A stretch of DNA of 64,000 nt. Source: a virus. Where the stretch lies: positions 11,023 through 75,022 of IMG/VR virus record IMGVR_UViG_3300032236_000765; one strand, written 5' to 3'. Below are positions 855-28,073 of the stretch, one piece after another. Both the position numbers and the translations under genes were made by a program. Within the stretch, counting starts at the first letter, position 1. Each line of letters starts with the position of its first letter. A model generated the notes under the pieces. The model saw nothing but the letters and a program-made list of their open reading frames with translations. It did no database searches and was not told the DNA's origin.

Positions 855-945
855 TGGCGGAAGCGGTGAGATTCGAACTCACGGTACCCTTCCAGGTACG
901 TCGCATTTCAAGTGCGGTGCCATAAACCAACTCGACCACGCTTCC
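855..945 (-). tRNA. tRNA-Ser(TGA)
   Basis: Cloverleaf with long variable arm, anticodon loop CT-TGA-AA, GTTCGAATC, encoded CCA. Confidence 0.92.
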
Positions 946-955
946 ATATAAATAT

Positions 956-1456
956 TTATGAAACTAGTTTGGTAACAGATTTTTTCTGTCTATACTCTCG
1001 GTCATAGTCTCTTCCTTTACCTCTATTTTTGCTCTTAAAGGTAGGTAATTGAGCATCACAGTTGCAACAGACTAATCTAAAGTTTTCAATTCTATTATCT
1101 GTACTGTCACCTGAAATATGATCACACACTAACGGTACAGGTTCACCCATCCATTCAGTAATACCACATCGACTACATGCATTACCGGTAGTTTCAATTA
1201 AATATGCTCTAGCATATCGTCTAGCAACTACTTCGCAATACTGACCCAATTTACCATTTTCAACTATGTCTTTTCTACGAGAAGAAATCTTGTCTGCATC
1301 ATGCTTTCCCTTATTCCAAGTCACGTTACCTTTTTGTGCACCAGCTTTCGGTGAACGCTTGTGTGTTATTCTATTTGGGTTATCCTTACAACTCATTTGA
1401 TGAGCAGTTAAAGATCCTTTATTTTTTATTTCTCTATTACAGTATACACAATTCAT
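956..1456 (-). CDS. HNH homing endonuclease with N-terminal Zn finger
   Basis: CxxC...DHISGDSTDNRIENFRLVCCNC HNH motif; free-standing between tRNAs. Confidence 0.85.
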   Translation of the reverse strand: MNCVYCNREIKNKGSLTAHQMSCKDNPNRITHKRSPKAGAQKGNVTWNKGKHDADKISSRRKDIVENGKLGQYCEVVARRYARAYLIETTGNACSRCGITEWMGEPVPLVCDHISGDSTDNRIENFRLVCCNCDAQLPTFKSKNRGKGRDYDREYRQKKSVTKLVS

Positions 1457-1527
1457 AGTAATGACTCCTCATTACTATTTATGCTTTATCGCAGAAATTC
1501 ACAGAATAAATGCAATAAGTCAAGAAT

Positions 1528-1602
1528 TGGTGCGCCCGGGAGGATTTGAACCTCCGACCCTCGCGTTATCAGCACGATGCTCTTCCCCTGAGCTACAAGC
1601 GC
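1528..1602 (-). tRNA. tRNA-Ile(GAT)
   Basis: Anticodon arm TCGTG-CTGATAA-CGCGA, T-loop GTTCAAATC, CCA. Confidence 0.92.
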
Positions 1603-1609
1603 ATGAGAT

Positions 1610-1694
1610 TGGTGGGGCATCCCGGGATCGAACCAGGCGTGTCATAAGACGGCGGATTTACAGTCCGCTGCATCACCGTTGATGCTTCTACCCC
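1610..1694 (-). tRNA. tRNA-Tyr(GTA)
   Basis: GCGGA-CTGTAAA-TCCGC, long variable arm, CCA. Confidence 0.9.
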
Positions 1695-1702
1695 GTTAAT
1701 CT

Positions 1703-1909
1703 TTACTTAAACTTGTTGAACCACCCATCTGCAAACTTCTGAACAACTTCGTCTGCATCAAAATAATGATCCTTGTTAAGAATTGCATCCTGAACATCAA
1801 GGACATCATCTTCATCCAAACCGATCTCTCGCAGATAATTTAGATATATGGCAAGTCCGTCGTCATGTGGATTCTTCTTAGCGAAGTTTACGTGAATAAC
1901 TTGTCCCAT
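1703..1909 (-). CDS. Hypothetical protein (68 aa)
   Basis: ORF with AAGGA SD, between tRNAs. Confidence 0.6.
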   Translation of the reverse strand: MGQVIHVNFAKKNPHDDGLAIYLNYLREIGLDEDDVLDVQDAILNKDHYFDADEVVQKFADGWFNKFK

Positions 1910-1936
1910 TGATGATGTCCTTTTTGTTCGGGTTAA

Positions 1937-2119
1937 TTACGGTTGTACAGTATGAGTACCGGTGTCACGGACACTTCCGTTACCGACACTACGAGGTTCG
2001 ACTACATTATCAGCCGCAGTCGTATTATCCATGGCAGGTGCAGCAGGAGTAGGCTTTTGGCTACATGCAGCAAGAGCAAGTACGCTAGCTAGGCTAGCAA
2101 GTGTGATAATCTTCATCAT
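1937..2119 (-). CDS. Small lipoprotein
   Basis: Signal peptide with lipobox LAAC; AAGGAG SD. Confidence 0.7.
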   Translation of the reverse strand: MMKIITLASLASVLALAACSQKPTPAAPAMDNTTAADNVVEPRSVGNGSVRDTGTHTVQP

Positions 2120-2144
2120 TTAGTTTCTCCTTTGTAAATGAACT

Positions 2145-2221
2145 TGGTACACCCGACGTGTGTCGATCCCGTTCCTCCGCCTTGAAAGGGCAGTGATCTA
2201 GCCATCGTAATCTATGGGTGC
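2145..2221 (-). tRNA. tRNA-Glu(TTC)
   Basis: CTGCC-CTTTCAA-GGCGG; atypical T-loop ATCGACA; CCA. Confidence 0.82.
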
Positions 2222-2227
2222 GTATAT

Positions 2228-2311
2228 TGGTGCGGGCAGTCGGACTCGAACCGACACGGAATACTCCGAGGGATTTTAAATCCCTTGCGTCTACCATTTC
2301 GCCATGCCCGC
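2228..2311 (-). tRNA. tRNA-Leu(TAA)
   Basis: AGGGA-TTTAAAA-TCCCT, variable arm, CCA. Confidence 0.92.
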
Positions 2312-2331
2312 ATAACAAACTTCATGTATGT

Positions 2332-2360
2332 AATATACTAAAGCTACAAACGAATGTCAA
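2332..2360 (-). promoter_or_regulatory. sigma70-type promoter inside tRNA array
   Basis: TTGACA-17 nt-TATATT. Confidence 0.7.
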
Positions 2361-2383
2361 CCGAATTTTTTAAAAAACTCAGA

Positions 2384-2457
2384 TGGCACCAGTGCAGGGA
2401 GTTGAACCCCGGCTTGCGGTTTTGGAGACCGTCGTGCTACCGTAACACTTCACTGGT
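2384..2457 (-). tRNA. tRNA-Trp(CCA)
   Basis: ACGGT-CTCCAAA-ACCGC, CCA end. Confidence 0.9.
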
Positions 2458-2458
2458 A

Positions 2459-2854
2459 TTATTCGTCGTCAAACTCAGCAGGAACAGGAAGATCGATTAG
2501 ATCGTGTTCACGATCAAGATACTTCATGTCAATATGAATCGGGTCCATTTCCTTGAGCGACTCTACCACATCATATGGGTCTAGAGGACCGCATGTATAG
2601 ACATCCAACTGTACCATTGCAGGTTCGTCCTCATCCCAGATGTGCATCACGATGTGACTAGTTTCGATAATTGTAGCACATGTAAGACCACGATTACCTT
2701 CCATTTCGCTATAGACAGCATAGGGTCCCATAAGGATCTTCATACCAATGCGCTCAATCAGCGCGGGCATCCACTCTTTGGATACCTTATCCGGACAAAC
2801 CAGAGGATTCCTTACCTCGGCACGGACAATAAGATGTTTGTGAAATAGAGCCAA
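2459..2854 (-). CDS. speD: S-adenosylmethionine decarboxylase proenzyme-like (class 1b)
   Basis: HLIV...GLTCATIIETSHIVMHIWDE...QLDVYTCG signature. Start reassigned to TTG 2854 because the track start lies inside tRNA-Val. Confidence 0.8.
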   Translation of the reverse strand: MALFHKHLIVRAEVRNPLVCPDKVSKEWMPALIERIGMKILMGPYAVYSEMEGNRGLTCATIIETSHIVMHIWDEDEPAMVQLDVYTCGPLDPYDVVESLKEMDPIHIDMKYLDREHDLIDLPVPAEFDDE

Positions 2855-2933
2855 CTCATAAATTCCCTTTGTTAAAAGCCGACATAAGAGTCGGATCATA
2901 TATTTATCATATGACCCGACTCCTGTTGAAAAA

Positions 2934-3008
2934 TGGTACTCGGGGCCAGGATCGAACTGGCGACCTTCGCTGTGTAAAAGCGTTGCGCTACCGCTGCGCC
3001 ACCCGAGC
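2934..3008 (-). tRNA. tRNA-Val(TAC)
   Basis: ACGCT-TTTACAC-AGCGA, GTTCGATC, CCA. Confidence 0.9.
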
Positions 3009-3518
3009 ATTATTTTTATATTCTCTCAGATATGCATTACGCTTAGTATGCTTTTTATAGCGATTACCTTTGCCTGCATTACCGAAAGTTTCAGTTTGAG
3101 TGTGACAATTAGGACAAAGCAGTCTAAGATTGCTCAAATCGTTATTATCACTATTACCGTCTATGTGATCTAATTGTAGACTAAGCGGCTTGTTATTCCA
3201 AGTACTTTCTTGTCCACATTCAGAACATTTATCTCCTACTTTTTCTTTAAGATATCTCTTAAAATTTCCTCCCAATCCTTGTTCAATGCGAGGAATTGAA
3301 ATGTATTCCCAAGTGTATTTAGATGAACAATCAACTGAACAAAACTTATTTTTAGTTCCTGCACTCGTGCGAAACTCTATTCCGCAGTACATGCATTCAC
3401 ACAACGGTTTTTTTGTTCGTGAGACTGAATATCTGCCTTCCGGACGATGAACACTCTTATGTCCATTCAACTTTCTGACTGAATCAAACTCTTTACCGCA
3501 TTCACATTTATACATCAT
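2988..3518 (-). CDS. HNH homing endonuclease; last codons overlap tRNA-Val 5' end
   Basis: Zn fingers plus LQLDHIDGNSDNNDLSNLRLLCPNCH; TATAAATA at 3539-3546 upstream. Confidence 0.88.
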   Translation of the reverse strand: MMYKCECGKEFDSVRKLNGHKSVHRPEGRYSVSRTKKPLCECMYCGIEFRTSAGTKNKFCSVDCSSKYTWEYISIPRIEQGLGGNFKRYLKEKVGDKCSECGQESTWNNKPLSLQLDHIDGNSDNNDLSNLRLLCPNCHTQTETFGNAGKGNRYKKHTKRNAYLREYKNNARVAQR

Positions 3519-3561
3519 AAGTTCCTTTTGCTCAACTGTATTTATACCAGTTGCACAAAAA

Positions 3562-3587
3562 GCACTCTTTACCTGAGCTAACCGGGC
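3562..3587 (-). pseudogene. Truncated tRNA 5' fragment (acceptor strand + D-arm)
   Basis: GCCCGGT-TA-GCTC-AGGTAAA-GAGT then breaks off just upstream of the HNH gene. Confidence 0.6.
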
Positions 3588-3593
3588 ATAAAA

Positions 3594-3670
3594 TGGTCGG
3601 AGTACTAGGATTCGAACCTAGGACCCTCTGCTCCCAAAGCAGATGCGCTACCAGACTGCGCTATACTCCG
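3594..3670 (-). tRNA. tRNA-Pro(TGG)
   Basis: CGGAGTA acceptor, TCTGC-TTTGGGA-GCAGA, CCA. Confidence 0.93.
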
Positions 3671-3678
3671 TCATATGT

Positions 3679-3752
3679 TGGTGGAGATGAAGGGAATCGA
3701 ACCCTTAAGTGCGCCTTGCAAAGGCGCCAGTTTACCGTTAGCTTACATCCCC
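3679..3752 (-). tRNA. tRNA-Ala(TGC)
   Basis: GCGCC-TTTGCAA-GGCGC; G3:U70 pair; CCA. Confidence 0.92.
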
Positions 3753-3800
3753 GAAAACTTTATTATACTTATCACCTTCTTGTACTAGACAATTATATTT

Positions 3801-3877
3801 TGGCGTCCCCAGAGGGACTTGAACCCCCGACCCACAGATTAGAAGTCTGTTGCTCTATCCAACTGAGCTATGGAGAC
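3801..3877 (-). tRNA. tRNA-Arg(TCT)
   Basis: ACAGA-CTTCTAA-TCTGT, CCA. Confidence 0.93.
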
Positions 3878-3946
3878 ATTACTTTCTGAATATAGCTATG
3901 AATAAAAAAGAAAGCAAGAGTTTTGGGTGACCCTTGCCTTCAATCC

Positions 3947-4339
3947 TTACAATTCTGCTTTAGTCACAACTTCTACGTTATCAACCGGAACAGATACCGG
4001 TGTGGTAATTTGACTTGCTTGCGCCTTCAAATCAGAAGTATGCGCAACCACAGCAGATTTAAATTTGATCAAGTCTTCTTCAGCAGACTTGATAGCTGTA
4101 TTTGCAGCATCAATAGCTTGTTGATGGAGATCGCGTGATCTAGCAAGCGCATCCTGCAAGTCTGCTTTAAGCTTGTTTACTGTTGCGTTGCCTACCAAAG
4201 CTGCTGCCTTAGCTTGCTCAAAAATAGTTTTTACATCTGATACAATCTCTTGCTCAAGTTGCACAAACTTTTGTCCTACCTGTTCTACTTGTACTACTTC
4301 GTCTATGAACATTTTCTTAATAGTTTCTAGAAACCCCAT
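3947..4339 (-). CDS. Hypothetical coiled-coil protein
   Basis: AAGGAG SD; upstream ATAAATA; Ala/Gln-rich helical sequence. Confidence 0.7.
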   Translation of the reverse strand: MGFLETIKKMFIDEVVQVEQVGQKFVQLEQEIVSDVKTIFEQAKAAALVGNATVNKLKADLQDALARSRDLHQQAIDAANTAIKSAEEDLIKFKSAVVAHTSDLKAQASQITTPVSVPVDNVEVVTKAEL

Positions 4340-4386
4340 ACGGTTCTCCTTTGTCTGTATGTGATAATATTATTTATCAACTGAAC

Positions 4387-4462
4387 TGGTGCTCTAAGCG
4401 AGAATCGAACTCACTATCTCCGGGTTACAAATCCGGCGCATCGCCAGCAATGCTTTTAGAGC
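4387..4462 (-). tRNA. tRNA-Thr(TGT)
   Basis: CCGGA-TTTGTAA-CCCGG, CCA. Confidence 0.88.
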
Positions 4463-4468
4463 AATAAT

Positions 4469-4544
4469 TGGCTCCCCAGGTTCGATTCGAACGAACGACA
4501 TTTCGGTTAACAGCCGAACGCAACTACCACTGTGCTACTGGGGA
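4469..4544 (-). tRNA. tRNA-Asn(GTT)
   Basis: TTCGG-CTGTTAA-CCGAA, GCCA end. Confidence 0.9.
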
Positions 4545-4597
4545 ATAAAATCATTATCGATGATATTTAATGTTCGAAAAAGAGTCGGATTATTTTC

Positions 4598-5158
4598 CTA
4601 ATTAAGGTCAATAATCCGACTATGCTTAGGAACACCTGTGAGCAAGTATTCCATCTGATCTGCGAGAATGTGACGATTCTGCAAGATCAAGTTTTCGAAG
4701 TGATTAGGTTCATACGGAACATAGAGAAGTTCCATACCTGCTTGTCTCAAAGTCTTGCAACCCTTTTTCTGATTGCAATCAAAGCAAGCTGTGACTACGT
4801 TAGTCCATTCATCAAGACCGCCGTGGAATCTAGAAATGATATGGTCTCTGCTCAACTTTGAATGTCCAAAGTGACCACCACAGTAAGCACAGATATTACG
4901 ATCACGTGCAAACAATGTTCTATTGGTCAACACGACACGGTTGTGTCGCGTGAAATCAAAGCCGGATCCCCGAACAGCAATGATGCTGGGTGTTTCAAGA
5001 TAGCTTTGCCGTCCGTCTTTTTGAATCCCCCCGCGATATTTAGCGATGACATCACCTAGGGTCCAGACAACTAAGTTTTTAGCATGATAGCTAATTGCTT
5101 CGTCATTGGTAATCCATGATCTTGGAGTACCCGCAACGTCTAAGGCTAATACCGCCAT
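4598..5158 (-). CDS. HNH endonuclease (McrA-like family)
   Basis: LFARDRNICAYCG...DHII...GG...WTNVVTACFDCNQKKG. Confidence 0.88.
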   Translation of the reverse strand: MAVLALDVAGTPRSWITNDEAISYHAKNLVVWTLGDVIAKYRGGIQKDGRQSYLETPSIIAVRGSGFDFTRHNRVVLTNRTLFARDRNICAYCGGHFGHSKLSRDHIISRFHGGLDEWTNVVTACFDCNQKKGCKTLRQAGMELLYVPYEPNHFENLILQNRHILADQMEYLLTGVPKHSRIIDLN

Positions 5159-5282
5159 AGTTTACTCCTATTTCTATTCATATTTAGACTCTAAAACATT
5201 ATACATTAGAAATGCTCTTTGTGCATTGGGTAATGTATAAATACAGAATCATCCTTGACTAATATAGTAAAGGATTCAAGAT

Positions 5283-5376
5283 TGGTAGTCCCGCCCGGAT
5301 TCGAACCGAGATCGTGCGCTAATCTGGCGCTTACACGAGGTATAAGCTCGTCGCTCTACCGTTGAGCTACAGGACC
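5283..5376 (-). tRNA. tRNA-Ile(TAT) with long variable arm
   Basis: ACGAG-CTTATAC-CTCGT; ~24-nt variable region; GTTCGAATC; ACCA. Confidence 0.82.
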
Positions 5377-5387
5377 GTAAATTTTAT

Positions 5388-5461
5388 TGGTGCCCTATGA
5401 CAGAATCGAACTGCCGCTCACTGATTACGAAACAGTTGTTCTACCATTTAACTAATCATGG
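5388..5461 (-). pseudogene. Degenerate tRNA-Thr(CGT)
   Basis: D, anticodon (TT-CGT-AA) and T arms plus CCA present; 5' acceptor strand CCATGAT mispairs with ATAGGGC at 3 of 7 positions. Confidence 0.7.
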
Positions 5462-5482
5462 TTCAATATAATTGATGCGAAA

Positions 5483-5559
5483 TGGTGGGTTATCTGGGAA
5501 TCGAACCCAGTCCATAATACGATTAAAAGTCGTATGCTCAGCCGGAGAGCCTATAACCC
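5483..5559 (-). tRNA. tRNA-Lys(TTT)
   Basis: TACGA-CTTTTAA-TCGTA; short D-loop; CCA. Confidence 0.85.
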
Positions 5560-5566
5560 GTATAAT

Positions 5567-5650
5567 TGGTGCCCCAAGCCGGACTCGAACCAGCACGCCT
5601 CGCGGCAGTAGATTTTGAGTCTACCGCGTCTACCATTCCACCATTGGGGC
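5567..5650 (-). tRNA. tRNA-Leu(CAA)
   Basis: GTAGA-CTCAAAA-TCTAC, variable arm, CCA. Confidence 0.93.
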
Positions 5651-5655
5651 ATTAA

Positions 5656-5829
5656 CTAGAATAAAGGGTTTAGAACGAATTTTCCAATTGGTTCATTGTC
5701 GAACAAAAACGTCACTGTGATTTGATCGGGATTTCCACCGAACAAATTATCAGGAAGTTGTTCAAGAGTGATCGTCAATTTTTCTTTCAATGCTGTCTTT
5801 AGCATTTCGTCGAATGTAGCTTGGTCCAT
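5656..5829 (-). CDS. Small hypothetical protein (57 aa, MDQATFDEML...)
   Basis: Manual ORF with AGGAG SD, below track cutoff. Confidence 0.6.
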   Translation of the reverse strand: MDQATFDEMLKTALKEKLTITLEQLPDNLFGGNPDQITVTFLFDNEPIGKFVLNPLF

Positions 5830-5873
5830 TGTATTCTCCTATGAGAGTATTCACTTGTTACTCTTGATAATAA

Positions 5874-5958
5874 TGGTGCGGATGAAGGGACTCGAACCCC
5901 CACACCTTTCGGTACTGGTACCTAAAACCAGGGCGTCTACCAATTCCGCCACATCCGC
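5874..5958 (-). tRNA. tRNA-Leu(TAG)
   Basis: CTGGT-TTTAGGT-ACCAG, variable arm, CCA. Confidence 0.93.
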
Positions 5959-5963
5959 ATGTT

Positions 5964-6087
5964 CTGATATTCTTAGGAAGAGAGTTTGGAAGAATTGCAC
6001 TTCCCTAGGATACTGACCTATCCTCTTTGCACTGGTCAGAGTGCAGAGTTCGCCACTTAACAGGAACTCCCTACCTAAGAATATCAG
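5964..6087 (-). ncRNA. Putative tRNA-like structured RNA with kissing loops
   Basis: Perfect 14-bp closing stem; internal hairpins with complementary loops CTGACC/GGTCAG; T-arm-like GGAAG-TGCAATT-CTTCC. Confidence 0.65.
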
Positions 6088-6188
6088 GTATAGATTTAGA
6101 ATCTAAACTGCGACGGTGAGAACCGGCTTCGTCTTTAATCTTGTGCACCAGGAAACGACACAAGAACCGCTAGACCTAATATTTTCTA

Positions 6189-6266
6189 ACAATGTCAAAG
6201 AACAAGAGCGTCTTTCGTCGCTCTCTCTATGTTCTAAATATAGCGCAGGTCCAATTCAGAGTCAAC
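6189..6266 (-). promoter_or_regulatory. sigma70 promoter followed by boxB-like hairpin and boxA-like element
   Basis: TTGACT-17-TATATT; GAGCG-ACGAAAGA-CGCTC hairpin; TGTTCTTTGACATTGT. Confidence 0.6.
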
Positions 6267-6301
6267 CGAAAAACGACCTAGATGCGAAATATTTTTTAAT
6301 A

Positions 6302-6376
<75 letters not shown>

Positions 6377-6380
6377 AAAA

Positions 6381-6486
6381 TACGGTTTTTATCTACTTCA
6401 CGAAGACTCGGGCGAATAGCGTATGCAACTCAATCATGCCTTACTCGCTTGCTCTTGGTAGCCCGGGCGTAACCGAAAACCGGTAA
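6381..6486 (-). ncRNA. Putative long irregular hairpin RNA
   Basis: Nested stems CGGTTTT/AAAACCG, CGGGC/GCCCG, AGCG/CGCT, GCA/TGC; GC-rich island directly 5' of tRNA-Phe. Confidence 0.4.
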
Positions 6487-6588
6487 ATTGCTAGCCTAAT
6501 ACAAGACTAGCAAACTGAAAATATTTATATAGGTATGCCAGCGAAAGATAATCTTTCATCCTTAATATGAGTAAGGATCTTTCGCTGG

Positions 6589-6777
6589 CTATATACCGAT
6601 GATCTTTACTATGAGATTGAAAGGCCAAACATGTTCCCACAGAAAATGCTCTAGTGGATAGCTGATTGTTATACCTATCCAGAACCTATAATCAGTGATT
6701 AGATTAGTACAATGATTGTAACATGTGGTCAAGAAGCCTGTTCTACTATAATGGTAGTGTGGTTCATTATTTTTCAT
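6589..6777 (-). CDS. Small hypothetical, possibly membrane protein (MKNNEPHYHY...)
   Basis: Start reassigned to ATG 6777 (track start is inside tRNA-Val); followed by 13-bp hairpin 6537-6588. Confidence 0.55.
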   Translation of the reverse strand: MKNNEPHYHYSRTGFLTTCYNHCTNLITDYRFWIGITISYPLEHFLWEHVWPFNLIVKIIGI

Positions 6778-6798
6778 GTTTTCTCTCTTTTTAATAGA

Positions 6799-6870
6799 TG
6801 GCGGCCCTGATGATTTTTCTCTCGTTGACACACTACCCATGATTGGAAGATGGTGGTGCGAGACAGGGCC
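6799..6870 (-). ncRNA. CCA-terminated tRNA-sized RNA without a cloverleaf
   Basis: GGCCCTG...CAGGGCC-GCCA perfect acceptor stem; no D- or T-loop consensus. Confidence 0.55.
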
Positions 6871-6878
6871 ATAAACTT

Positions 6879-6953
6879 TGGTGCGCGATGCAGGAGTTGA
6901 ACCTACCACCTCTTCCATGTCAAGGAAGCGTTCTACCGATGAACTAATCGCGC
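6879..6953 (-). tRNA. tRNA-Val(GAC)
   Basis: CTTCC-TTGACAT-GGAAG, CCA. Confidence 0.92.
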
Positions 6954-6959
6954 ATTGTC

Positions 6960-7035
6960 TGGTACTAGGTATTGGATTCGAACCAATCCACTGAGTTCCA
7001 CAAACTCATGTGCTGACCGCTAACACTAACCTAGC
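6960..7035 (-). tRNA. tRNA-His(GTG), no G-1, A73 discriminator
   Basis: TGAGT-TTGTGGA-ACTCA; position -1 is T; ends ACCA. Confidence 0.88.
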
Positions 7036-7102
7036 ATGAATTGCGGTAAAGGATATGGATCAAGCCTTTGAGGCTTTGTTACCGACACTATATATTAAGT
7101 GT

Positions 7103-7573
7103 TTAGTTCTTCACATACTTGTTGTATGCAGCGATCCAATCAGTTGAGATTTCTTTCTGAGCAGTTGCCATATCGATCTGACCTGAACAAATCATCTTGT
7201 GTAACTTGTTTTCTAATGCATCTTTCAAGTGTGCATTATAAGGAGATGATGTGTATGACTGTGGCCAGAGATTCTTGACATCATTTGCACCGCCTAGTTC
7301 AAGTGAGATCAAGTGATCTATCTCAAACTTGTCAGACTTAGGATCGATCTTGTATTCAGCAAAAACTTGCTTCTTCACAGATTCAGGTACGTTACGGACC
7401 TTCTTGCCCTGTGCGTCTGTGCCGCTGGTGTAATTCGGTACACATACTACTGCTTTTGTTGCAGCAGGATTGACTACACCAGGGGTCAACACAGGATCAG
7501 GCTTCTGAGGAATGTCAGCAGCATATGCAGAAACAGAAATTGATAGTAAAGCTAATGTTAATAATTTTTTCAT
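7103..7573 (-). CDS. Exported protein with HNH-like motif
   Basis: Sec signal peptide (MKKLLTLALLSISVSAYA); EIDHLISLELGGAN...NLWPQ. Confidence 0.7.
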   Translation of the reverse strand: MKKLLTLALLSISVSAYAADIPQKPDPVLTPGVVNPAATKAVVCVPNYTSGTDAQGKKVRNVPESVKKQVFAEYKIDPKSDKFEIDHLISLELGGANDVKNLWPQSYTSSPYNAHLKDALENKLHKMICSGQIDMATAQKEISTDWIAAYNKYVKN

Positions 7574-7599
7574 GATTACATCCTTTACTATATTTATCT

Positions 7600-7677
7600 T
7601 GGCAGCTCCTGAGGGATTCGAACCCCCGACTTCTACGTTCGAAGCGTAGCACTCTAAATCCGCTGAGTTAAGGAGCC
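7600..7677 (-). tRNA. tRNA-Arg(TCG)
   Basis: CTACG-CTTCGAA-CGTAG, GCCA. Confidence 0.88.
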
Positions 7678-7680
7678 TAA

Positions 7681-7754
7681 TGGCTGGGGAACTAGGACTC
7701 GAACCTAGAATAACGGTACCAAAAACCGCTGTGTTACCATTACACCATTCCCCA
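7681..7754 (-). tRNA. tRNA-Gln(TTG)
   Basis: GCGGT-TTTTGGT-ACCGT; U1:A72, GCCA. Confidence 0.92.
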
Positions 7755-7760
7755 ATGAAA

Positions 7761-7836
7761 TGGTGCCGCTTGCAGGATTCGAACCTGCCACCTACTGATT
7801 ACTAATCAGTTGCTCTACCAAATGAGCTAAAGCGGC
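7761..7836 (-). tRNA. tRNA-Thr(AGT)
   Basis: Canonical Thr body (GCCGCTT...AAGCGGC-ACCA); ACTGA-TTAGTAA-TCAGT. Confidence 0.88.
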
Positions 7837-25150: not shown

Positions 25151-25834
25151 CTATTTCTTTTCTAATTTGTAGGATTTGCCAAGTATCCCCGGAAACATCA
25201 GATGCATCATAGTCAAGTTCTTCTCATCATTGTAGTTGAAATACTGACCAGTATGAAACCATGCCTTCTTGAATTCTCTACGCAGCGCCATTTTAAGTGC
25301 ATCGCTAGGAGAAACATCAGGAGTACGGTTTAGATAATCAAGAATATCTTTTCTGATTGATCCTTCTCTATTTACATTCCTACAATAAACCCTATATACG
25401 GCAGGAGGATCCTTTTTAAAATAGATCACTCCTGCCGGCATGGGTGTTACATGGGTAATCGTAGCAGCAGGATAAAAGGATAGCAGTTCGTTTATAATAC
25501 TGATATCATTCGTGAATACACCAGCACTGTCTCGTTCATGCCGCAGACAAACCCTACTATCATTCTTATACTTGTTTCGGAAATTAATATATTTCTCAAT
25601 CAGATCATAATTTATTTTAGCTACGTTTATTTTTCTACCTTCATACCATCTAGGATTCTCAGCTTCTTCCTCAATACGAGCCTTGATACGTTCATTGTAT
25701 CCTTGAAAATCACTCACATAAGAAGCCCAGTACAACTCTGGAATTTCCAGAGTTGCTCTATAAGCGAACTTCTTATAGAAGAGTGTTAATCTGTCTTTGC
25801 TCTTAATTTTCGAGTTGGATAATGCCGTCATCAC
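25151..25834 (-). CDS. Hypothetical protein
   Basis: Long ORF overlapping clpA end. Confidence 0.6.
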   Translation of the reverse strand: MMTALSNSKIKSKDRLTLFYKKFAYRATLEIPELYWASYVSDFQGYNERIKARIEEEAENPRWYEGRKINVAKINYDLIEKYINFRNKYKNDSRVCLRHERDSAGVFTNDISIINELLSFYPAATITHVTPMPAGVIYFKKDPPAVYRVYCRNVNREGSIRKDILDYLNRTPDVSPSDALKMALRREFKKAWFHTGQYFNYNDEKNLTMMHLMFPGILGKSYKLEKK

Positions 25835-28073
25835 CGATCCTTGCAGCCTGTTTTTGAGTCACATTAAATACAATCTCACCGTTTTCCATAACTGCCATGA
25901 TATTTGCGTTATTGATACGTTCAAACAAAATCTTCTTAGAGAGCGGCACACGAACAACCTCATCGATCTTTCGTGCTAGAGGACGTGCACCCATCTTGCT
26001 ATCATATCCAATTTCTGCAAGGTGATCAACCACTGACTCAGCTAGATTGAGAGTGATATTATGCTTGTCTAGTAGCGGCTTCTTGAGTTCTTCCACAAAC
26101 TTGATAACAATCTTCTTGATAGAAAGATGATCCAGCTTGTTGAACTTGCAGACCATATCAAGGCGATTTCGGAACTCAGGCTTGAAGAACTGCTTGAGAG
26201 CCTTATCATCTTCACCTGTTCGTTCAAGGCTACCGAATCCGATATTGTTTCGTTCGTTGTCAGCCGAACCTAGATTTGAAGTCAGGATGATGAGGGTATT
26301 CTTCATCGAAACCTGCTTACCATTCGATCCAGTGATGACACCTTCATCCAACATCTGCAAGAAGATGTTAAAGATATCTGGGTGAGCCTTTTCAACTTCA
26401 TCGAACAGCAGGATTGAGTGCGGGTTCTTGCTCAGGTCTGAAATTAGGCGTCCACCTTGTACTTGTGAATCACCAAAGCCCACATAACCCGGGGGAGGAC
26501 CAATCAAGCTGCTTACGCTATGCTTCTCACTGTACTCAGACATATCGTACTTGAGAAGCGGCATATCCAAATTCTTAGACAGCAGCTTGGCCAATTCTGT
26601 TTTACCCGTGCCCGTCGGGCCCAAGAACAAGAAGCTCGCAATCGGTTTCTTATCGTTACCGATTCCCGCAAACGAGACATACACACGTTCAAGAACCTTA
26701 TCCACAGTCTCATCCTGACCGTAGAGCTTGTTCTTGACATTCATTTCAAGGTGATTGATGCGATCATAATTATCACCGCTCAACTTGTCAGCAGGAACAC
26801 CAGTGAACTTCTCCACCTGTTCATGAATGAGTTCTTTGGTGATCATCGCATCCTTGTTTTCGAGCACCCGCTGCTTTGCACATGCAGCATCGATCAGGTC
26901 AATAGACTTGTCAGGATTCTTACGATCATGAATATAACGATCTGCATTGTCAACCGCAGCTTCGATTGCTTCCTCAGTGATGTTCACTTCATGGAATTCG
27001 CTCAGACGAGCTGCGAGACCATTGAGAATGCGAATCGTAGAATCACGAGAAGGTTCATCAATCGTTACCTTGTAGAATCGACGCATCAATGCACGATCCT
27101 TCTCAAACGATTCATAGAACTCTTCCCAAGTTGTAGAAGCAATCACCTTGAGATTACCCTTAGTAATAGCAGGCTTCAACATGTTTGCGAAGTCTGTTCC
27201 ACCGCCGTTACCTGTATTGCCTGCACCCTGCATTGTATGTGCTTCGTCGATGAACAGAATCGCTTTCTTCTTTACAGAAAGTGCTTCAAGGACATTCTTG
27301 ACCTTTTCTTCAAAGTCACCGCGATAGCGAGACCCTGCTAGCAGCGAACCAATCTCAAGTGAATAGAGTTCGTAGCCTGATAAGAATTCAGGAACTTCAT
27401 CATCCACGATTGCATTAGCGATTCCTTCTGCGATTGCAGTCTTACCGACACCCGGGTCACCGACCATCAATACGTTGGACTTGAAACGCTTTGCGAGAAC
27501 ATTAATGATATCATTGATCTCTGACGCACGACCAATGACCGGCTCAAGCTTGCCCTTACGAGCAAGGTCGGTGAGATTGATCGTGTATTCTTCGAGGATC
27601 TCGTCAGCTTGATTATCAGAAATATTACCAACAAAGTCACCGCCCTTGTAATGGCGCTGCCAGTGAACGAGGAACTCACTTTTGGTGACACCATACTTCA
27701 GAAGGAAGTAATGACCGTGGCTGTTATTCTCATGGATGATGCTCATATACAAGTCAATCGTTGTGACTTGTCGGCGACCGCTGAACAGAACCTGCGTGAC
27801 ACTGCGATTCATCACACGTTCAAGCGTGTTGGTTCGCTTAGGAAGGATATTAGGATCCTTGCTTTCGATAGCATGGAGACCATTCAAGTATGCTTCTACT
27901 TCTTGAATCATTAGTTCGATTTCAACACCGAAACTATTCAGGCATTTCTTGAACGGTGGGTGAGAGATGAGTGACCATAGTAGATGTTCTACTGTGCAAT
28001 ATTCATGCTGGCGTTCCTTTGCAGAACCTATTGCACGTTCAATGATATTTTCAATCTCAGGGGAAGGTTGCAA
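25803..28073 (-). CDS. clpA: ClpA-type AAA+ chaperone
   Basis: Clp N domain (EHLL), two Walker A motifs (GDPGVGKT, GPTGTGKT), FIDEAH, FDEVEKAH, GARPL; no ClpB middle domain. Confidence 0.93.
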   Translation of the reverse strand: MQPSPEIENIIERAIGSAKERQHEYCTVEHLLWSLISHPPFKKCLNSFGVEIELMIQEVEAYLNGLHAIESKDPNILPKRTNTLERVMNRSVTQVLFSGRRQVTTIDLYMSIIHENNSHGHYFLLKYGVTKSEFLVHWQRHYKGGDFVGNISDNQADEILEEYTINLTDLARKGKLEPVIGRASEINDIINVLAKRFKSNVLMVGDPGVGKTAIAEGIANAIVDDEVPEFLSGYELYSLEIGSLLAGSRYRGDFEEKVKNVLEALSVKKKAILFIDEAHTMQGAGNTGNGGGTDFANMLKPAITKGNLKVIASTTWEEFYESFEKDRALMRRFYKVTIDEPSRDSTIRILNGLAARLSEFHEVNITEEAIEAAVDNADRYIHDRKNPDKSIDLIDAACAKQRVLENKDAMITKELIHEQVEKFTGVPADKLSGDNYDRINHLEMNVKNKLYGQDETVDKVLERVYVSFAGIGNDKKPIASFLFLGPTGTGKTELAKLLSKNLDMPLLKYDMSEYSEKHSVSSLIGPPPGYVGFGDSQVQGGRLISDLSKNPHSILLFDEVEKAHPDIFNIFLQMLDEGVITGSNGKQVSMKNTLIILTSNLGSADNERNNIGFGSLERTGEDDKALKQFFKPEFRNRLDMVCKFNKLDHLSIKKIVIKFVEELKKPLLDKHNITLNLAESVVDHLAEIGYDSKMGARPLARKIDEVVRVPLSKKILFERINNANIMAVMENGEIVFNVTQKQAARIGDDGIIQLEN

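Follow-up and report, generated by a model that had tools for sequence, protein, structure and literature searches.

A conserved small structured RNA with complementary hairpin loops in the tRNA arrays of freshwater giant phages

The window, the whole stretch of 64,000 nucleotides of viral DNA analysed here, holds 23 tRNA genes, and HNH endonuclease genes are located between the tRNAs. Close to tRNA-Leu(TAG), on the same strand, lies a segment that an initial annotation described as a tRNA-mimicking RNA with two mutually complementary hairpin loops. Does this segment encode an RNA, and what would such an RNA do? The features observed by the annotation are present in every detail (Table 1), and we find that a small folded non-coding RNA is indeed encoded at 5964-6087, on the minus strand, in the tRNA cluster of this uncultured freshwater giant phage. 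In the minus-strand reading, RNA position p corresponds to window coordinate 6088-p. The 3' end of the element lies 5 nt (AACAU) before tRNA-Leu(TAG), and the same spacing is found in the homologous locus L148.

Table 1. Features of the structured RNA element and its surroundings, in window coordinates
Feature	Coordinates	Strand	RNA positions	Details
Predicted sigma70-type promoter	6237..6265	-		TTGACT-17-TATATT; 10/12 consensus matches
Hairpin, then boxA-like word	6187..6225	-		Hairpin 6204-6225; GTTCTTTGACATTGTTA at 6187-6203
Leader between boxA and element	6090..6186	-		Homolog in L263 is a module of its own, closed by a stem
Whole structured RNA element	5964..6087	-		124 nt; MFE, homologs, covariation
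Outer closing stem, 5' strand	6074..6087	-	1-14	Pairs with 5964-5977
Inner acceptor-like stem, 5' strand	6065..6072	-	16-23	AGGGAGUU; pairs with 5979-5986
Single-stranded junction, 'D-loop-like'	6049..6064	-	24-39	With UUAAGUGGCGAA; conserved AGUGGCG
Hairpin 1	6025..6048	-	40-63	9 layers; loop at 6034-6039
Loop 1	6034..6039	-	49-54	CUGACC; partner of loop 2
Hairpin 2	6007..6024	-	64-81	6 bp; loop at 6013-6018
Loop 2	6013..6018	-	70-75	GGUCAG; partner of loop 1
T-arm-like hairpin	5988..6004	-	84-100	5 bp; 7-nt loop UGCAAUU
Inner acceptor-like stem, 3' strand	5979..5986	-	102-109	AACUCUCU
Outer closing stem, 3' strand	5964..5977	-	111-124
tRNA-Leu(TAG)	5874..5958	-		Encoded CCA; ARAGORN and Rfam

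The minus-strand RNA consists of a closing stem of 22-23 layers and a four-way junction, which holds a 9-layer arm, a 6-bp arm and the T-arm. The 14-bp terminal stem is perfectly paired, as annotated. A 1x1 mismatch, U15/U110, separates it from the inner stem AGGGAGUU/AACUCUCU, which extends it and contains one G-U pair (G18-U107). In the window copy, the 14 + 8 bp around the U-U mismatch form a near-continuous duplex of ~20 bp or more. Both annotated hairpins, with the CTGACC and the GGTCAG loop, and the T-arm-like hairpin are found with the dimensions listed in Table 1; the layers of hairpin 1 include one internal C-A mismatch. The nested fold of the element reaches -51.1 kcal/mol in RNAfold, compared with -30.0 +/- 3.3 in 200 dinucleotide shuffles (z = -6.36), and 0/200 shuffles fold as stably.

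We found eight distinct homologs, each within a tRNA array on the contig of a freshwater jumbo phage; the homolog loci are L137 (= L141), L148, L151, L155 (= L176), L263 (= L265), L261 (= L262) and L264. A first pattern for IMG/VR matched nothing because it fixed two naturally variable stem positions, and a loops-only pattern also gave no match in IMG/VR. A 19-nt word spanning the T-arm leads to 8 IMG/VR loci, and the loops-only pattern identifies three homologs in metagenomes. Searching 185,579 prokaryote genomes with the T-arm word gave no match. Among homologs the identity of the element is 85-98%, as against ~50% in the 110-nt flanks, and its neighbours differ, as for a discrete module. 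AGUGGCG is invariant in 8/8 homologs, with the 5' part of the junction varying in length by 3-4 nt, and the stem and loop of the T-arm are invariant across homologs including L264.

With the exception of L264, the most divergent copy, the homologs are close relatives. The L264 copy (L264:4888-4982) does without the 14-bp outer stem; its inner stem reads GGUGCU/AGCAUC, and it closes with a 7-layer acceptor-like stem followed by GCCA. Some variants lose the terminal C1-G124 pair; L148 and runs X3 and X4 have A in place of G124. L261/L262 is a chimeric copy, recombined at the T-arm. In Logan contigs of related strains, joints at 6087/6092 to 6172 mark a leader stretch that is replaced or skipped. 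The element is single-copy in its contig and likewise in the records of four relatives. It is absent from 80 loci sharing the 5' half of tRNA-Leu, and from the relatives identified through the neighbouring 156-aa ORF (L004-L015, G001-G005), most of which also do without the array. For a neighbouring 57-aa ORF no relatives were found, and among 271 loci examined the closing-stem halves do not surround any other interior.

The homolog alignment reveals compensatory double changes at 18/48 nested pairs. Altogether 96.2% of the alignment cells are paired, a value that 0/500 shuffles match, and slid controls are 39-50% paired. RNAalifold independently recovers the same fold with 17 covarying pairs. 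The outer stem changes by compensation (A6-U119 to G-C, G14-C111 to A-U), and two two-sided changes occur in the inner stem of L264. Two-sided changes affect 9/9 pairs of hairpin 1 and 4/6 pairs of hairpin 2. Natural variants in Logan contigs that fall within the arms create U-G or G-C pairs and never broken ones: A55 to G in hairpin 1 gives U-G, and a metagenome variant in hairpin 2 turns A69-U76 into G-C. Meanwhile, the G-U pairs fit the minus-strand RNA only; G18-U107, present in 7/8 sequences, would be A-C on the opposite strand. The covariation, the strand-specific G-U pairs and the 85-98% identity speak for a structured RNA gene that is conserved and shares the strand of the tRNAs.

The two 6-nt hairpin loops are exact reverse complements of each other. 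The initial annotation had named loss of this complementarity in homologs as one result that would overturn its proposal; the complementarity is kept, once by a two-sided change. Loops CUGACC/GGUCAG become CUAACC/GGUUAG in L264, replacing G-C by A-U. In L151 and L263 loop 1 reads CUGACU, where C to U gives a U-G pair with G70. The loop-loop helix was left out of the model used for aligning, and all 6/6 pairs are standard in 8/8 sequences (100% paired). This complementarity and covariation suggest that the two loops 'kiss'. The support consists of one two-sided and one one-sided event, and the loops are otherwise invariant, so their conservation may have another cause, e.g. pairing with a third RNA such as the anticodon loop of tRNA-Val.

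Using a structure descriptor composed of two adjacent hairpins with 6-nt loops, a following T-arm and 6-bp loop complementarity, we obtained 11 real matches in 2.4 Mb of phage loci, versus 0 in reversed or shuffled copies. Two of the descriptor look-alikes carry different complementary loop pairs, and the loops of the look-alikes resemble different anticodons (GAC, AAC, GAU, GUC). Covariance models R1-R3 fail to reach L250, L245 or T4 rnaC, which are look-alikes by building plan only. In solved loop-loop complexes with all loop bases paired, the stems are near-coaxial. Within one molecule, a fully paired 6-bp kiss of two linkerless hairpins is sterically demanding; with no linker and six loop bases paired, an intramolecular kiss may need hairpin 1 to be bent.

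The part order of the element is that of a class II tRNA (Leu, Ser, Tyr): an acceptor-like stem, a single strand with GG, a long arm, a short arm and a T-arm. The T-arm GGAAG-UGCAAUU-CUUCC agrees with tRNA at G53-C61, U54, C56, A57 and A58, and only position 55 (G) departs. The element interior aligns weakly to T4 tRNA-Ser (9.9 bits) and to phage tRNA-Val(GAC) (15 bits), and loop 1 reads like anticodon-loop positions 32-37 of tRNA-Val(GAC). The annotated 'D-loop-like' stretch is present with its AGUGG conserved, but its stem amounts to 2-3 bp at best and is not kept in all homologs: a possible 3-bp D-stem, GUU/AAC in the window and covarying to AUU/AAU in L264, has its 5' strand deleted in L155 and L263. 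At the place of an anticodon arm, all homologs carry 8-10 layers and a 6-nt loop complementary to loop 2. In the window copy the acceptor-like stem is lengthened by 16 layers relative to tRNA, running to 23 layers, with UCCU behind it instead of the N-CCA that the tRNA genes of this phage encode.

The annotation was thus right that the window copy has no CCA; its statement that the RNA cannot be charged does not hold across the family, as L264 ends in a 7-layer stem and GCCA. RF00005 finds only the flanking tRNAs over 5600-6400 at E <= 10, leaving the element unscored. ARAGORN makes no call at 5964-6087, and L264:4888-4982 is likewise matched by neither RF00005 nor ARAGORN. Of the proposed 'tRNA-elbow mimic', the part order and the fit of the T-arm stand. 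With the tRNA models rejecting the element and no stable D-stem, the elbow is at most a plausible shape.

Upstream of the element we notice a predicted promoter, at the same position in L155 and L263, and a hairpin followed by a boxA-like word. The word GTTCTTTGACATTGTTA, which we take to resemble rrn boxA (UGCUCUUUAACAA), also precedes the element in L137, L141 and L151, and in near-identical form in L155, L261, L263 and L264.

Catalogue searches returned no known family. Rfam 15 reported only tRNAs, both across the whole window at gathering score and across 5600-6400 at E <= 10; the check suggested by the annotation, YrlA included, gave no family match. The 801-nt and 124-nt queries, compared by blastn with 50,697 phage records, produced tRNA matches or noise only. 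Our literature search found no paper describing the RNA family of the element, and among public runs recorded as RNA none was listed as holding its stretch. A riboswitch or self-cleaving ribozyme was rejected for want of an Rfam match, and an intron-bearing tRNA because no contiguous excision yields a cloverleaf. We also rejected a retron ncRNA (no reverse-transcriptase match among 20 nearby ORFs scanned) and a MITE (single copy; flanks ...CUAUAC / AACAU... without target-site duplication). The element represents a family missing from the catalogues, and all members found to date lie in the tRNA arrays of jumbo phages from freshwater.

On the basis of these observations, the best explanation, to which we assign a probability of about 0.5, is a small non-coding RNA gene of an uncatalogued family, co-transcribed with tRNAs and tRNA-derived. 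The promoter at 6265-6237, followed by an rrn-like boxB/boxA antitermination leader, would drive the RNA together with the downstream tRNAs, and host tRNA/rRNA processing nucleases would then excise the RNA. Once RNase P has cut at the 5' end of tRNA-Leu, the element would keep 5 nt beyond its 3' end, and the other end may be set by RNase III in the long duplex or by RNase E in the AU-rich linker. If the element descends from a tRNA, the inner stem and T-arm would stack as the acceptor/T branch, and AGUGG and the T-loop would form the elbow. The anticodon-like loop C-U-GAC-C would then be sequestered by the codon-like G-GUC-AG of the 'variable' arm. As to its function, we speculate that the RNA is a stable non-decoding tRNA look-alike, occupying a factor that recognises the tRNA body. 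This is the most likely single role, offered tentatively and with the odds somewhat against it. Candidates for the occupied factor are enzymes of the host or the phage and defence proteins, and T4 RNAC might play the same kind of role.

Alternatively, the element may act in cis on the transcript of the tRNA operon, helping to process or stabilise it, with the duplex serving as an RNase III site and the excised piece having no role. The duplex would part the antitermination leader from the tRNAs or protect the transcript, comparable to the 16S/23S stems and the T7 early sites. We regard this as unlikely, and as the best placed of the alternatives. The order of boxA leader, element and first tRNA is common to all loci, and compensatory changes keep the length of the closing stem, which in L151, L155 and L263 is a continuous 23-bp duplex. 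Adjoining modules in L263, L137 and L155 are closed by stems of their own, and L102 has a syntenic element with a 20-bp stem and a T-arm around a different interior. However, the interior is conserved beyond what a cleavage site needs, with the T-arm, AGUGGCG and both loops invariant or covarying. L264 retains the interior without the long duplex, so the constant part is the interior rather than the duplex, which argues against a purely cis-acting element.

The loops might also join separate molecules. If loop 1 in each copy bound loop 2 in its partner, a head-to-head homodimer would result, or else chains, and the RNA would serve as a dimeric scaffold. In the homodimer, two quasi-continuous helices of ~21-22 layers (hairpin 1 + 6 + hairpin 2) would run in parallel. 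The hairpins are linkerless with fully complementary 6-nt loops, a geometry that favours coaxial stems in the TAR/TAR* and RNA I/RNA II loop-loop complexes. In all variants the sum of hairpin 1 + 6 + hairpin 2 stays at 21-22, with hairpin 1 taking 8-10 layers. As a precedent, one report (PMC12286853) describes GOLLD and ROOL, large phage-associated RNAs, as homo-oligomeric complexes. Such a dimer is nevertheless a pure deduction on our part: covariation is blind to pairing in cis versus in trans, and a mismatch or bulge, nearly always present in hairpin 1, could bend it for a contact in cis. We consider an intermolecular contact rather improbable.

The initial annotation favoured a decoy. The RNA would be an uncleavable inhibitor of tRNA-targeting defence nucleases, such as anticodon nucleases or PARIS-type and retron-type tRNases. 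Phages are known to use their tRNAs against defences that cleave tRNA. The tRNA-like body with its masked anticodon-like loop and the heavy investment of this phage in tRNAs (23 in the window) are compatible with this proposal. However, no link between the element and a defence system emerged. One would expect the decoy of an anticodon nuclease to expose its anticodon loop, not to conceal it, and the loops of the look-alikes mimic various anticodons (GAC, AAC, GAU, GUC). We thus give this specific role a low probability.

A conformational switch has a slightly poorer chance still. Here hairpins 1 and 2 would alternate with a nested CUGACC/GGUCAG helix that melts both. The forced nested alternative, at -47.7 against the MFE of -51.1, is just 3.4 kcal/mol higher. 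On the other hand, covariation backs both stems (9/9 and 4/6 pairs), and there is no recognisable expression platform or ligand-type junction and no Rfam riboswitch match at E <= 10.

That the segment is no RNA gene, being a decayed tRNA pseudogene or a DNA palindrome (a MITE, or a homing-endonuclease or recombination site), is barely credible: the perfect 14-bp terminal inverted repeat, the HNH endonuclease genes amid the tRNAs and the L261/L262 chimera recombined at the T-arm would fit it, but the element is single-copy per genome without target-site duplication, its G-U-preserving changes suit one strand only, and 85-98% identity beside ~50% in the flanks is the opposite of decay.

Returning to the preferred reading of a tRNA-derived small RNA gene, we compared the element with known systems. 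The processing stems of rRNA operons and the early RNase III sites of phages likewise place a duplex of at least 20 bp around structured RNA, behind a leader of boxB/boxA type. In contrast, the stem of the element encloses a 94-nt tRNA-like RNA and not rRNA, and L264 has no such stem. YrlA, or bacterial Y RNA-like RNA (RF02553), also combines a long closing stem with a tRNA-like module in ~115 nt, and some of these RNAs reportedly occur in phages, as Chen et al. are said to have described in 2014. Compared with a tRNA, the module of YrlA is a circular permutation: its T-arm comes first, and a loop closes the acceptor stem. The part order of the element is tRNA-like, unlike that of YrlA. RF02553 and RF00019 (YrlA / Y RNA) gave no match at E <= 10, and no Ro/TROVE gene (PF05731) was matched in the 75-kb contig, which covers ~22% of the genome.

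Small stable RNAs of unknown function have been known in phage tRNA clusters since the 1970s, with T4 species 1 and 2 as examples; to our knowledge, none of these RNAs is in Rfam. We used T4 RNAC (rnaC, NC_000866 70908-71046) and RNAD (species 2) for comparison. The function of RNAC, the species 1 RNA, is unknown (PMC9697503). Like the element, RNAC and RNAD come from small RNA genes that sit among phage tRNA genes and share their strand. In RNAC a terminal helix is followed by a long arm, then a 10-bp arm and finally a T-arm, an order that the element repeats. Its arm apices carry the complementary 6-mers UUGACG/CGUCAA, whose core UGAC/GUCA is common to the element; we know of no earlier remark on these complementary apical loops. 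In the RNAC of EcS1 and UFV01 the apical loops are invariant and the arm stem covaries. RNAC differs in that its T-loop is the canonical UUCGAAU, its first arm is much longer and its terminal helix is short, whereas the element has a closing stem of 22-23 layers, adjacent arms without linker and the loop UGCAAUU. The covariance model of the element, run with filters off, does not match rnaC or rnaD. By this analogy the two appear to have a common building plan only, and we do not claim homology.

We further consider the idea, speculative and probably wrong as a whole, that both represent one broad class of tRNA-derived phage RNAs, as yet unnamed, in which an anticodon-like Y-U-NNN-N loop pairs with a codon-like N-NNN-A-R loop. 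The loop pairs CUGACC/GGUCAG, CUAACC/GGUUAG, CUGAUC/GAUCAG, CUGUCA/UGACAG and T4 UUGACG/CGUCAA fit this pattern. Such RNAs might show a codon-anticodon-type minihelix on a tRNA body, in one molecule or in a symmetric dimer. If the class is true, the minihelix could be read by a partner that inspects tRNAs, such as the decoding site, a modification enzyme or a tRNA-targeting defence protein. If these RNAs bind tRNA-recognising enzymes or defence proteins, they would add a new layer to the phage handling of translation and to tRNA-directed immunity. Giant freshwater phages carry a conserved RNA of T4 RNAC-like plan, which provides a first covariation signal for the loop-loop contact. Since T4 is genetically tractable, the loop-loop pair as the functional core is directly testable there, and the broad class, if true, would turn the 50-year-old problem of T4 species 1 RNA into a testable structural hypothesis.

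The element is a 124-nt RNA on the minus strand of the window, running from 6087 to 5964, so that RNA position p corresponds to window position 6088-p. The terminal stem, the hairpins with their loops and the T-arm-like hairpin described in the initial annotation are all present on that strand, and RNAfold agrees with them. The nested structure is the minimum free energy fold, at -51.1 kcal/mol (shuffles, -30.0 +/- 3.3; z = -6.36). The end of the element 5 nt before tRNA-Leu(TAG), located at 5958-5874 (-), was likewise borne out.

Coordinates of the element, its natural variants, the neighboring features and the look-alikes (window positions unless a locus is named)
Feature	RNA position	Position	Strand	Remark
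Outer stem	1-14 / 111-124	6074-6087 / 5964-5977	-	14 bp, perfect
U-U mismatch	15, 110	6073, 5978	-	
Inner stem	16-23 / 102-109	6065-6072 / 5979-5986	-	8 bp, one G-U
Single strand	24-39	6049-6064	-	contains AAGUGGCGAA
Hairpin 1	40-63	6025-6048	-	loop 1, CUGACC; 9 layers including C-A mismatch
Hairpin 2	64-81	6007-6024	-	loop 2, GGUCAG; 6 bp; abuts hairpin 1 directly
Hairpin 3 (T-arm-like)	84-100	5988-6004	-	GGAAG-UGCAAUU-CUUCC; two bases past hairpin 2
Variant	A55 to G	6033 T>C	+	U48-A55 becomes U-G
Variant	A69 to G with U76 to C	6019 T>C with 6012 A>G	+	A69-U76 becomes G-C
Variant	A77 to G	6011 T>C	+	U68-A77 becomes U-G
Variant	G124 to A	5964 C>T	+	only last pair broken
Sigma70 promoter		6265-6237	-	TTGACT-17-TATATT, good match; upstream of element
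Leader hairpin		6225-6204	-	after promoter in transcription order
boxA-like word		6203-6187	-	GTTCTTTGACATTGTTA; after leader hairpin
HNH endonuclease ORFs		956-1456, 2988-3518, 4598-5158	-	between tRNA genes
Look-alike		L250:3675-3764 (same as L168)	+	loop pair CUGAUC/GAUCAG
Look-alike		L245:4790-4880	-	loop pair CUGUCA/UGACAG

Relatives reached through neighboring ORFs or the tRNA-Leu sequence lack the element. Natural variants were collected by comparing Logan contigs from four freshwater metagenome runs over the element region; joints at 6087/6092 in these contigs reveal that related strains differ in the upstream flank. Patterns tolerating the variant changes then retrieved homologs at L137 (same as L141) and L148, both from metagenomes, and at L151, L155 (same as L176), L263 (same as L265), L261 (same as L262) and L264. 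Every homolog lies in a tRNA array of a freshwater phage contig, as one copy per record. Between loci, identity is 85-98% in the element and about 50% in the 110-nt flanks, and the neighbors differ. Judged by sequence comparison, the element is a discrete conserved module. The copy at L261:8199-8324 (+) (L262:13198-13323) is a chimera, window-type in its 5' part and L264-type 3' of the invariant T-arm, with a broken closing stem and GCCA changed to AACA. We regard this copy as sequence-level evidence of recombination at the T-arm.

Eight distinct sequences were aligned to the model (alignment A7), and the loop-loop helix was left out of every model used for search or alignment. Standard pairs fill 96.2% of cells, with two-sided changes in 18 of 48 pairs, and none of 500 shuffles reaches any of five measures. 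Pairing falls to 39-50% when partners are offset by 1-3 columns. Covarying pairs comprise all nine of hairpin 1, four of six in hairpin 2 and four in the closing stem, and the T-arm shows no variation. RNAalifold, as an independent prediction, arrived at this fold too, counting 17 covarying pairs. G-U pairs are frequent (G18-U107 in seven of eight sequences); these and the U-G natural variants would be A-C on the opposite strand, indicating that the RNA is the minus-strand transcript, on the tRNA strand. Our findings support a real structured RNA gene on the minus strand, with a probability of about 0.95.

The six loop 1-loop 2 pairs are standard in all eight sequences. Loop 1 reads CUGACU in L151 and L263, turning C54-G70 into U-G. 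In L264, the most divergent homolog, the loops are CUAACC and GGUUAG, G51-C73 is replaced by A-U, and the stems of both hairpins differ throughout in sequence. Complementarity, whose loss in homologs had been set beforehand as the refuting outcome, is thus kept. The support is genuine yet thin, consisting of one two-sided and one one-sided event, and the complementarity is probably under selection. We also scanned 2.4 Mb of phage loci with a descriptor requiring complementary loops on two adjacent hairpins, plus a T-arm. Apart from the element family, two look-alikes emerged, both in further phage tRNA arrays and both matching the element in part order and part sizes but with other loop pairs; reversed and shuffled sequences gave zero matches. 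The covariance model of the element does not reach L250 or L245, and neither Rfam nor ARAGORN recognizes these RNAs. They share the building plan of the element; homology is unproven.

Hairpins 1 and 2 are joined without a linker, and a kiss would engage each loop over its full six bases. Solved loop-loop complexes with full pairing (TAR/TAR*, RNA I/RNA II) have roughly coaxial stems. Arms with a common root could take up this geometry only if one of them bent; hairpin 1 carries a mismatch or bulge in almost all copies. One possible alternative is a symmetric dimer, with loop-loop pairing between two molecules; hairpin 1, the six loop pairs and hairpin 2 add up to 21-22 layers in every variant. 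Another is a predicted nested helix that would use the loop complementarity, just 3.4 kcal/mol above the minimum.

The element has the part order of a class II tRNA, its T-arm fits G53-C61, U54, C56, R57 and A58, and its AGUGG resembles D-loop A14-G19. Its interior aligns weakly with T4 tRNA-Ser (9.9 bits) and a phage tRNA-Val(GAC) (15 bits). Loop 1 reads like C32-U33-GAC-N, and the cognate GUC lies within loop 2; such pairs recur as AAC with GUU in L264, GAU with AUC in L250 and GUC with GAC in L245. In the L264 copy (4888-4982, +) the outer stem is missing, and GCCA follows a 7-layer acceptor-like stem at the end, as in real tRNAs of this phage group. The 3' UCGCCA of this copy is complementary to its AGUGGCGA motif as well, so RNAfold favors the closing helix that the two would form. 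About 100 nt upstream of this copy, L264:4730-4789 (+) holds a 60-nt Rfam tRNA match (42.5 bits) without an anticodon arm. In contrast to a tRNA, the element has no conserved D-stem, its anticodon-arm counterpart has a stem of 8-10 layers with a 6-nt loop, and in the window copy the acceptor end is buried in a 23-layer duplex. RF00005 and ARAGORN accept no copy. We read the element as tRNA-derived yet not a tRNA. A syntenic 112-nt element at L102:2669-2780 (+), ahead of tRNA-Phe and tRNA-Leu(TAG) (z = -8.5), combines a closing stem of 20 bp with a T-arm; its interior differs and is without complementary loops.

The window derives from an IMG/VR contig of 75 kb, an estimated 22% of its genome, which implies a jumbo phage. 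Within 855-7836 lie 23 minus-strand tRNA genes with HNH endonuclease ORFs among them. An ORF with an S-adenosylmethionine decarboxylase domain (2459-3010, -; PF02675, E 5e-12) overlaps the start of tRNA-Val(TAC), and Rfam tRNA matches at 5391-5461 (-) and 1613-1694 (-) (41.8 and 32.1 bits) are uncalled by ARAGORN. A 756-aa Clp-type ATP-dependent protease ATPase (25803-28073, -; phrog_4871, 774 bits) is also encoded on this phage contig.

Upstream of the element lie a promoter, a hairpin and a word that we take to resemble rrn boxA (UGCUCUUUAACAA). This word recurs, exact or near-identical, upstream of the element in L137, L141, L151, L155, L261, L263 and L264. Given these signals, the tRNA transcription unit, with the element near its start, looks equipped for antitermination in the style of rrn operons. 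The 17-nt pattern also retrieved many IMG/VR contigs with large tRNA arrays (L196, L231, L175 and others). The boxA-to-element stretch (6090-6186, -) has a homolog in L263 that is a module of its own with a closing stem (L263:6440-6510, -). One more module, closed by GAATGCATC/GATGCATTC, occurs in L263, L137 and L155; its interior is tRNA-like, yet none of the tools identifies it as a tRNA. The first tRNA is thus preceded by as many as three stem-closed RNA modules in a row, and the linker word UAAUAAGUCU recurs between them. Each neighboring module has its own stem, and among 271 loci the element's closing stem surrounds no interior but its own.

Judging from position, promoter and stem, the element is probably co-transcribed with the tRNAs from the sigma70 promoter region and would then be cut free by RNase P, RNase III or RNase E. 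As a tentative role, we suggest a non-decoding tRNA look-alike that may engage a factor binding the tRNA body. A purely cis-acting processing or stability element is unlikely. A decoy for defense nucleases, the idea of the initial annotation and one specific version of the look-alike role, is very improbable.

An Rfam search including YrlA/Y RNA and a comparison with T4 species RNAs had been suggested, and neither gave a match. Rfam 15 found only tRNAs in the window at the gathering score, and at E <= 10 over 5600-6400 no tRNA, YrlA/Y RNA, ribozyme or riboswitch model touched the element. Blastn against 50,697 phage records returned no match to it, and its covariance model did not match T4 rnaC or rnaD. 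The literature refers to RNAC and RNAD as 'RNAs of yet unknown functions' (PMC9697503).

T4 RNAC (species 1 RNA) is located within the T4 tRNA cluster (rnaC, L136:2909-3047, -); its fold consists of a terminal helix followed by a long arm, a second arm of 10 bp and a canonical T-arm. The 5' GAUUCGA of RNAC is complementary as well to UCGAAUC in its T-loop region. UUGACG at the long-arm apex (43-48) and the 6-nt second-arm loop CGUCAA (97-102) are exact reverse complements. Both are invariant in EcS1 and UFV01, where the second-arm stem changes with compensation. By sequence, the element falls outside RNAC. The central UGAC/GUCA is identical in the two RNAs. By this analogy, the element is at least built like RNAC, and perhaps works like it.
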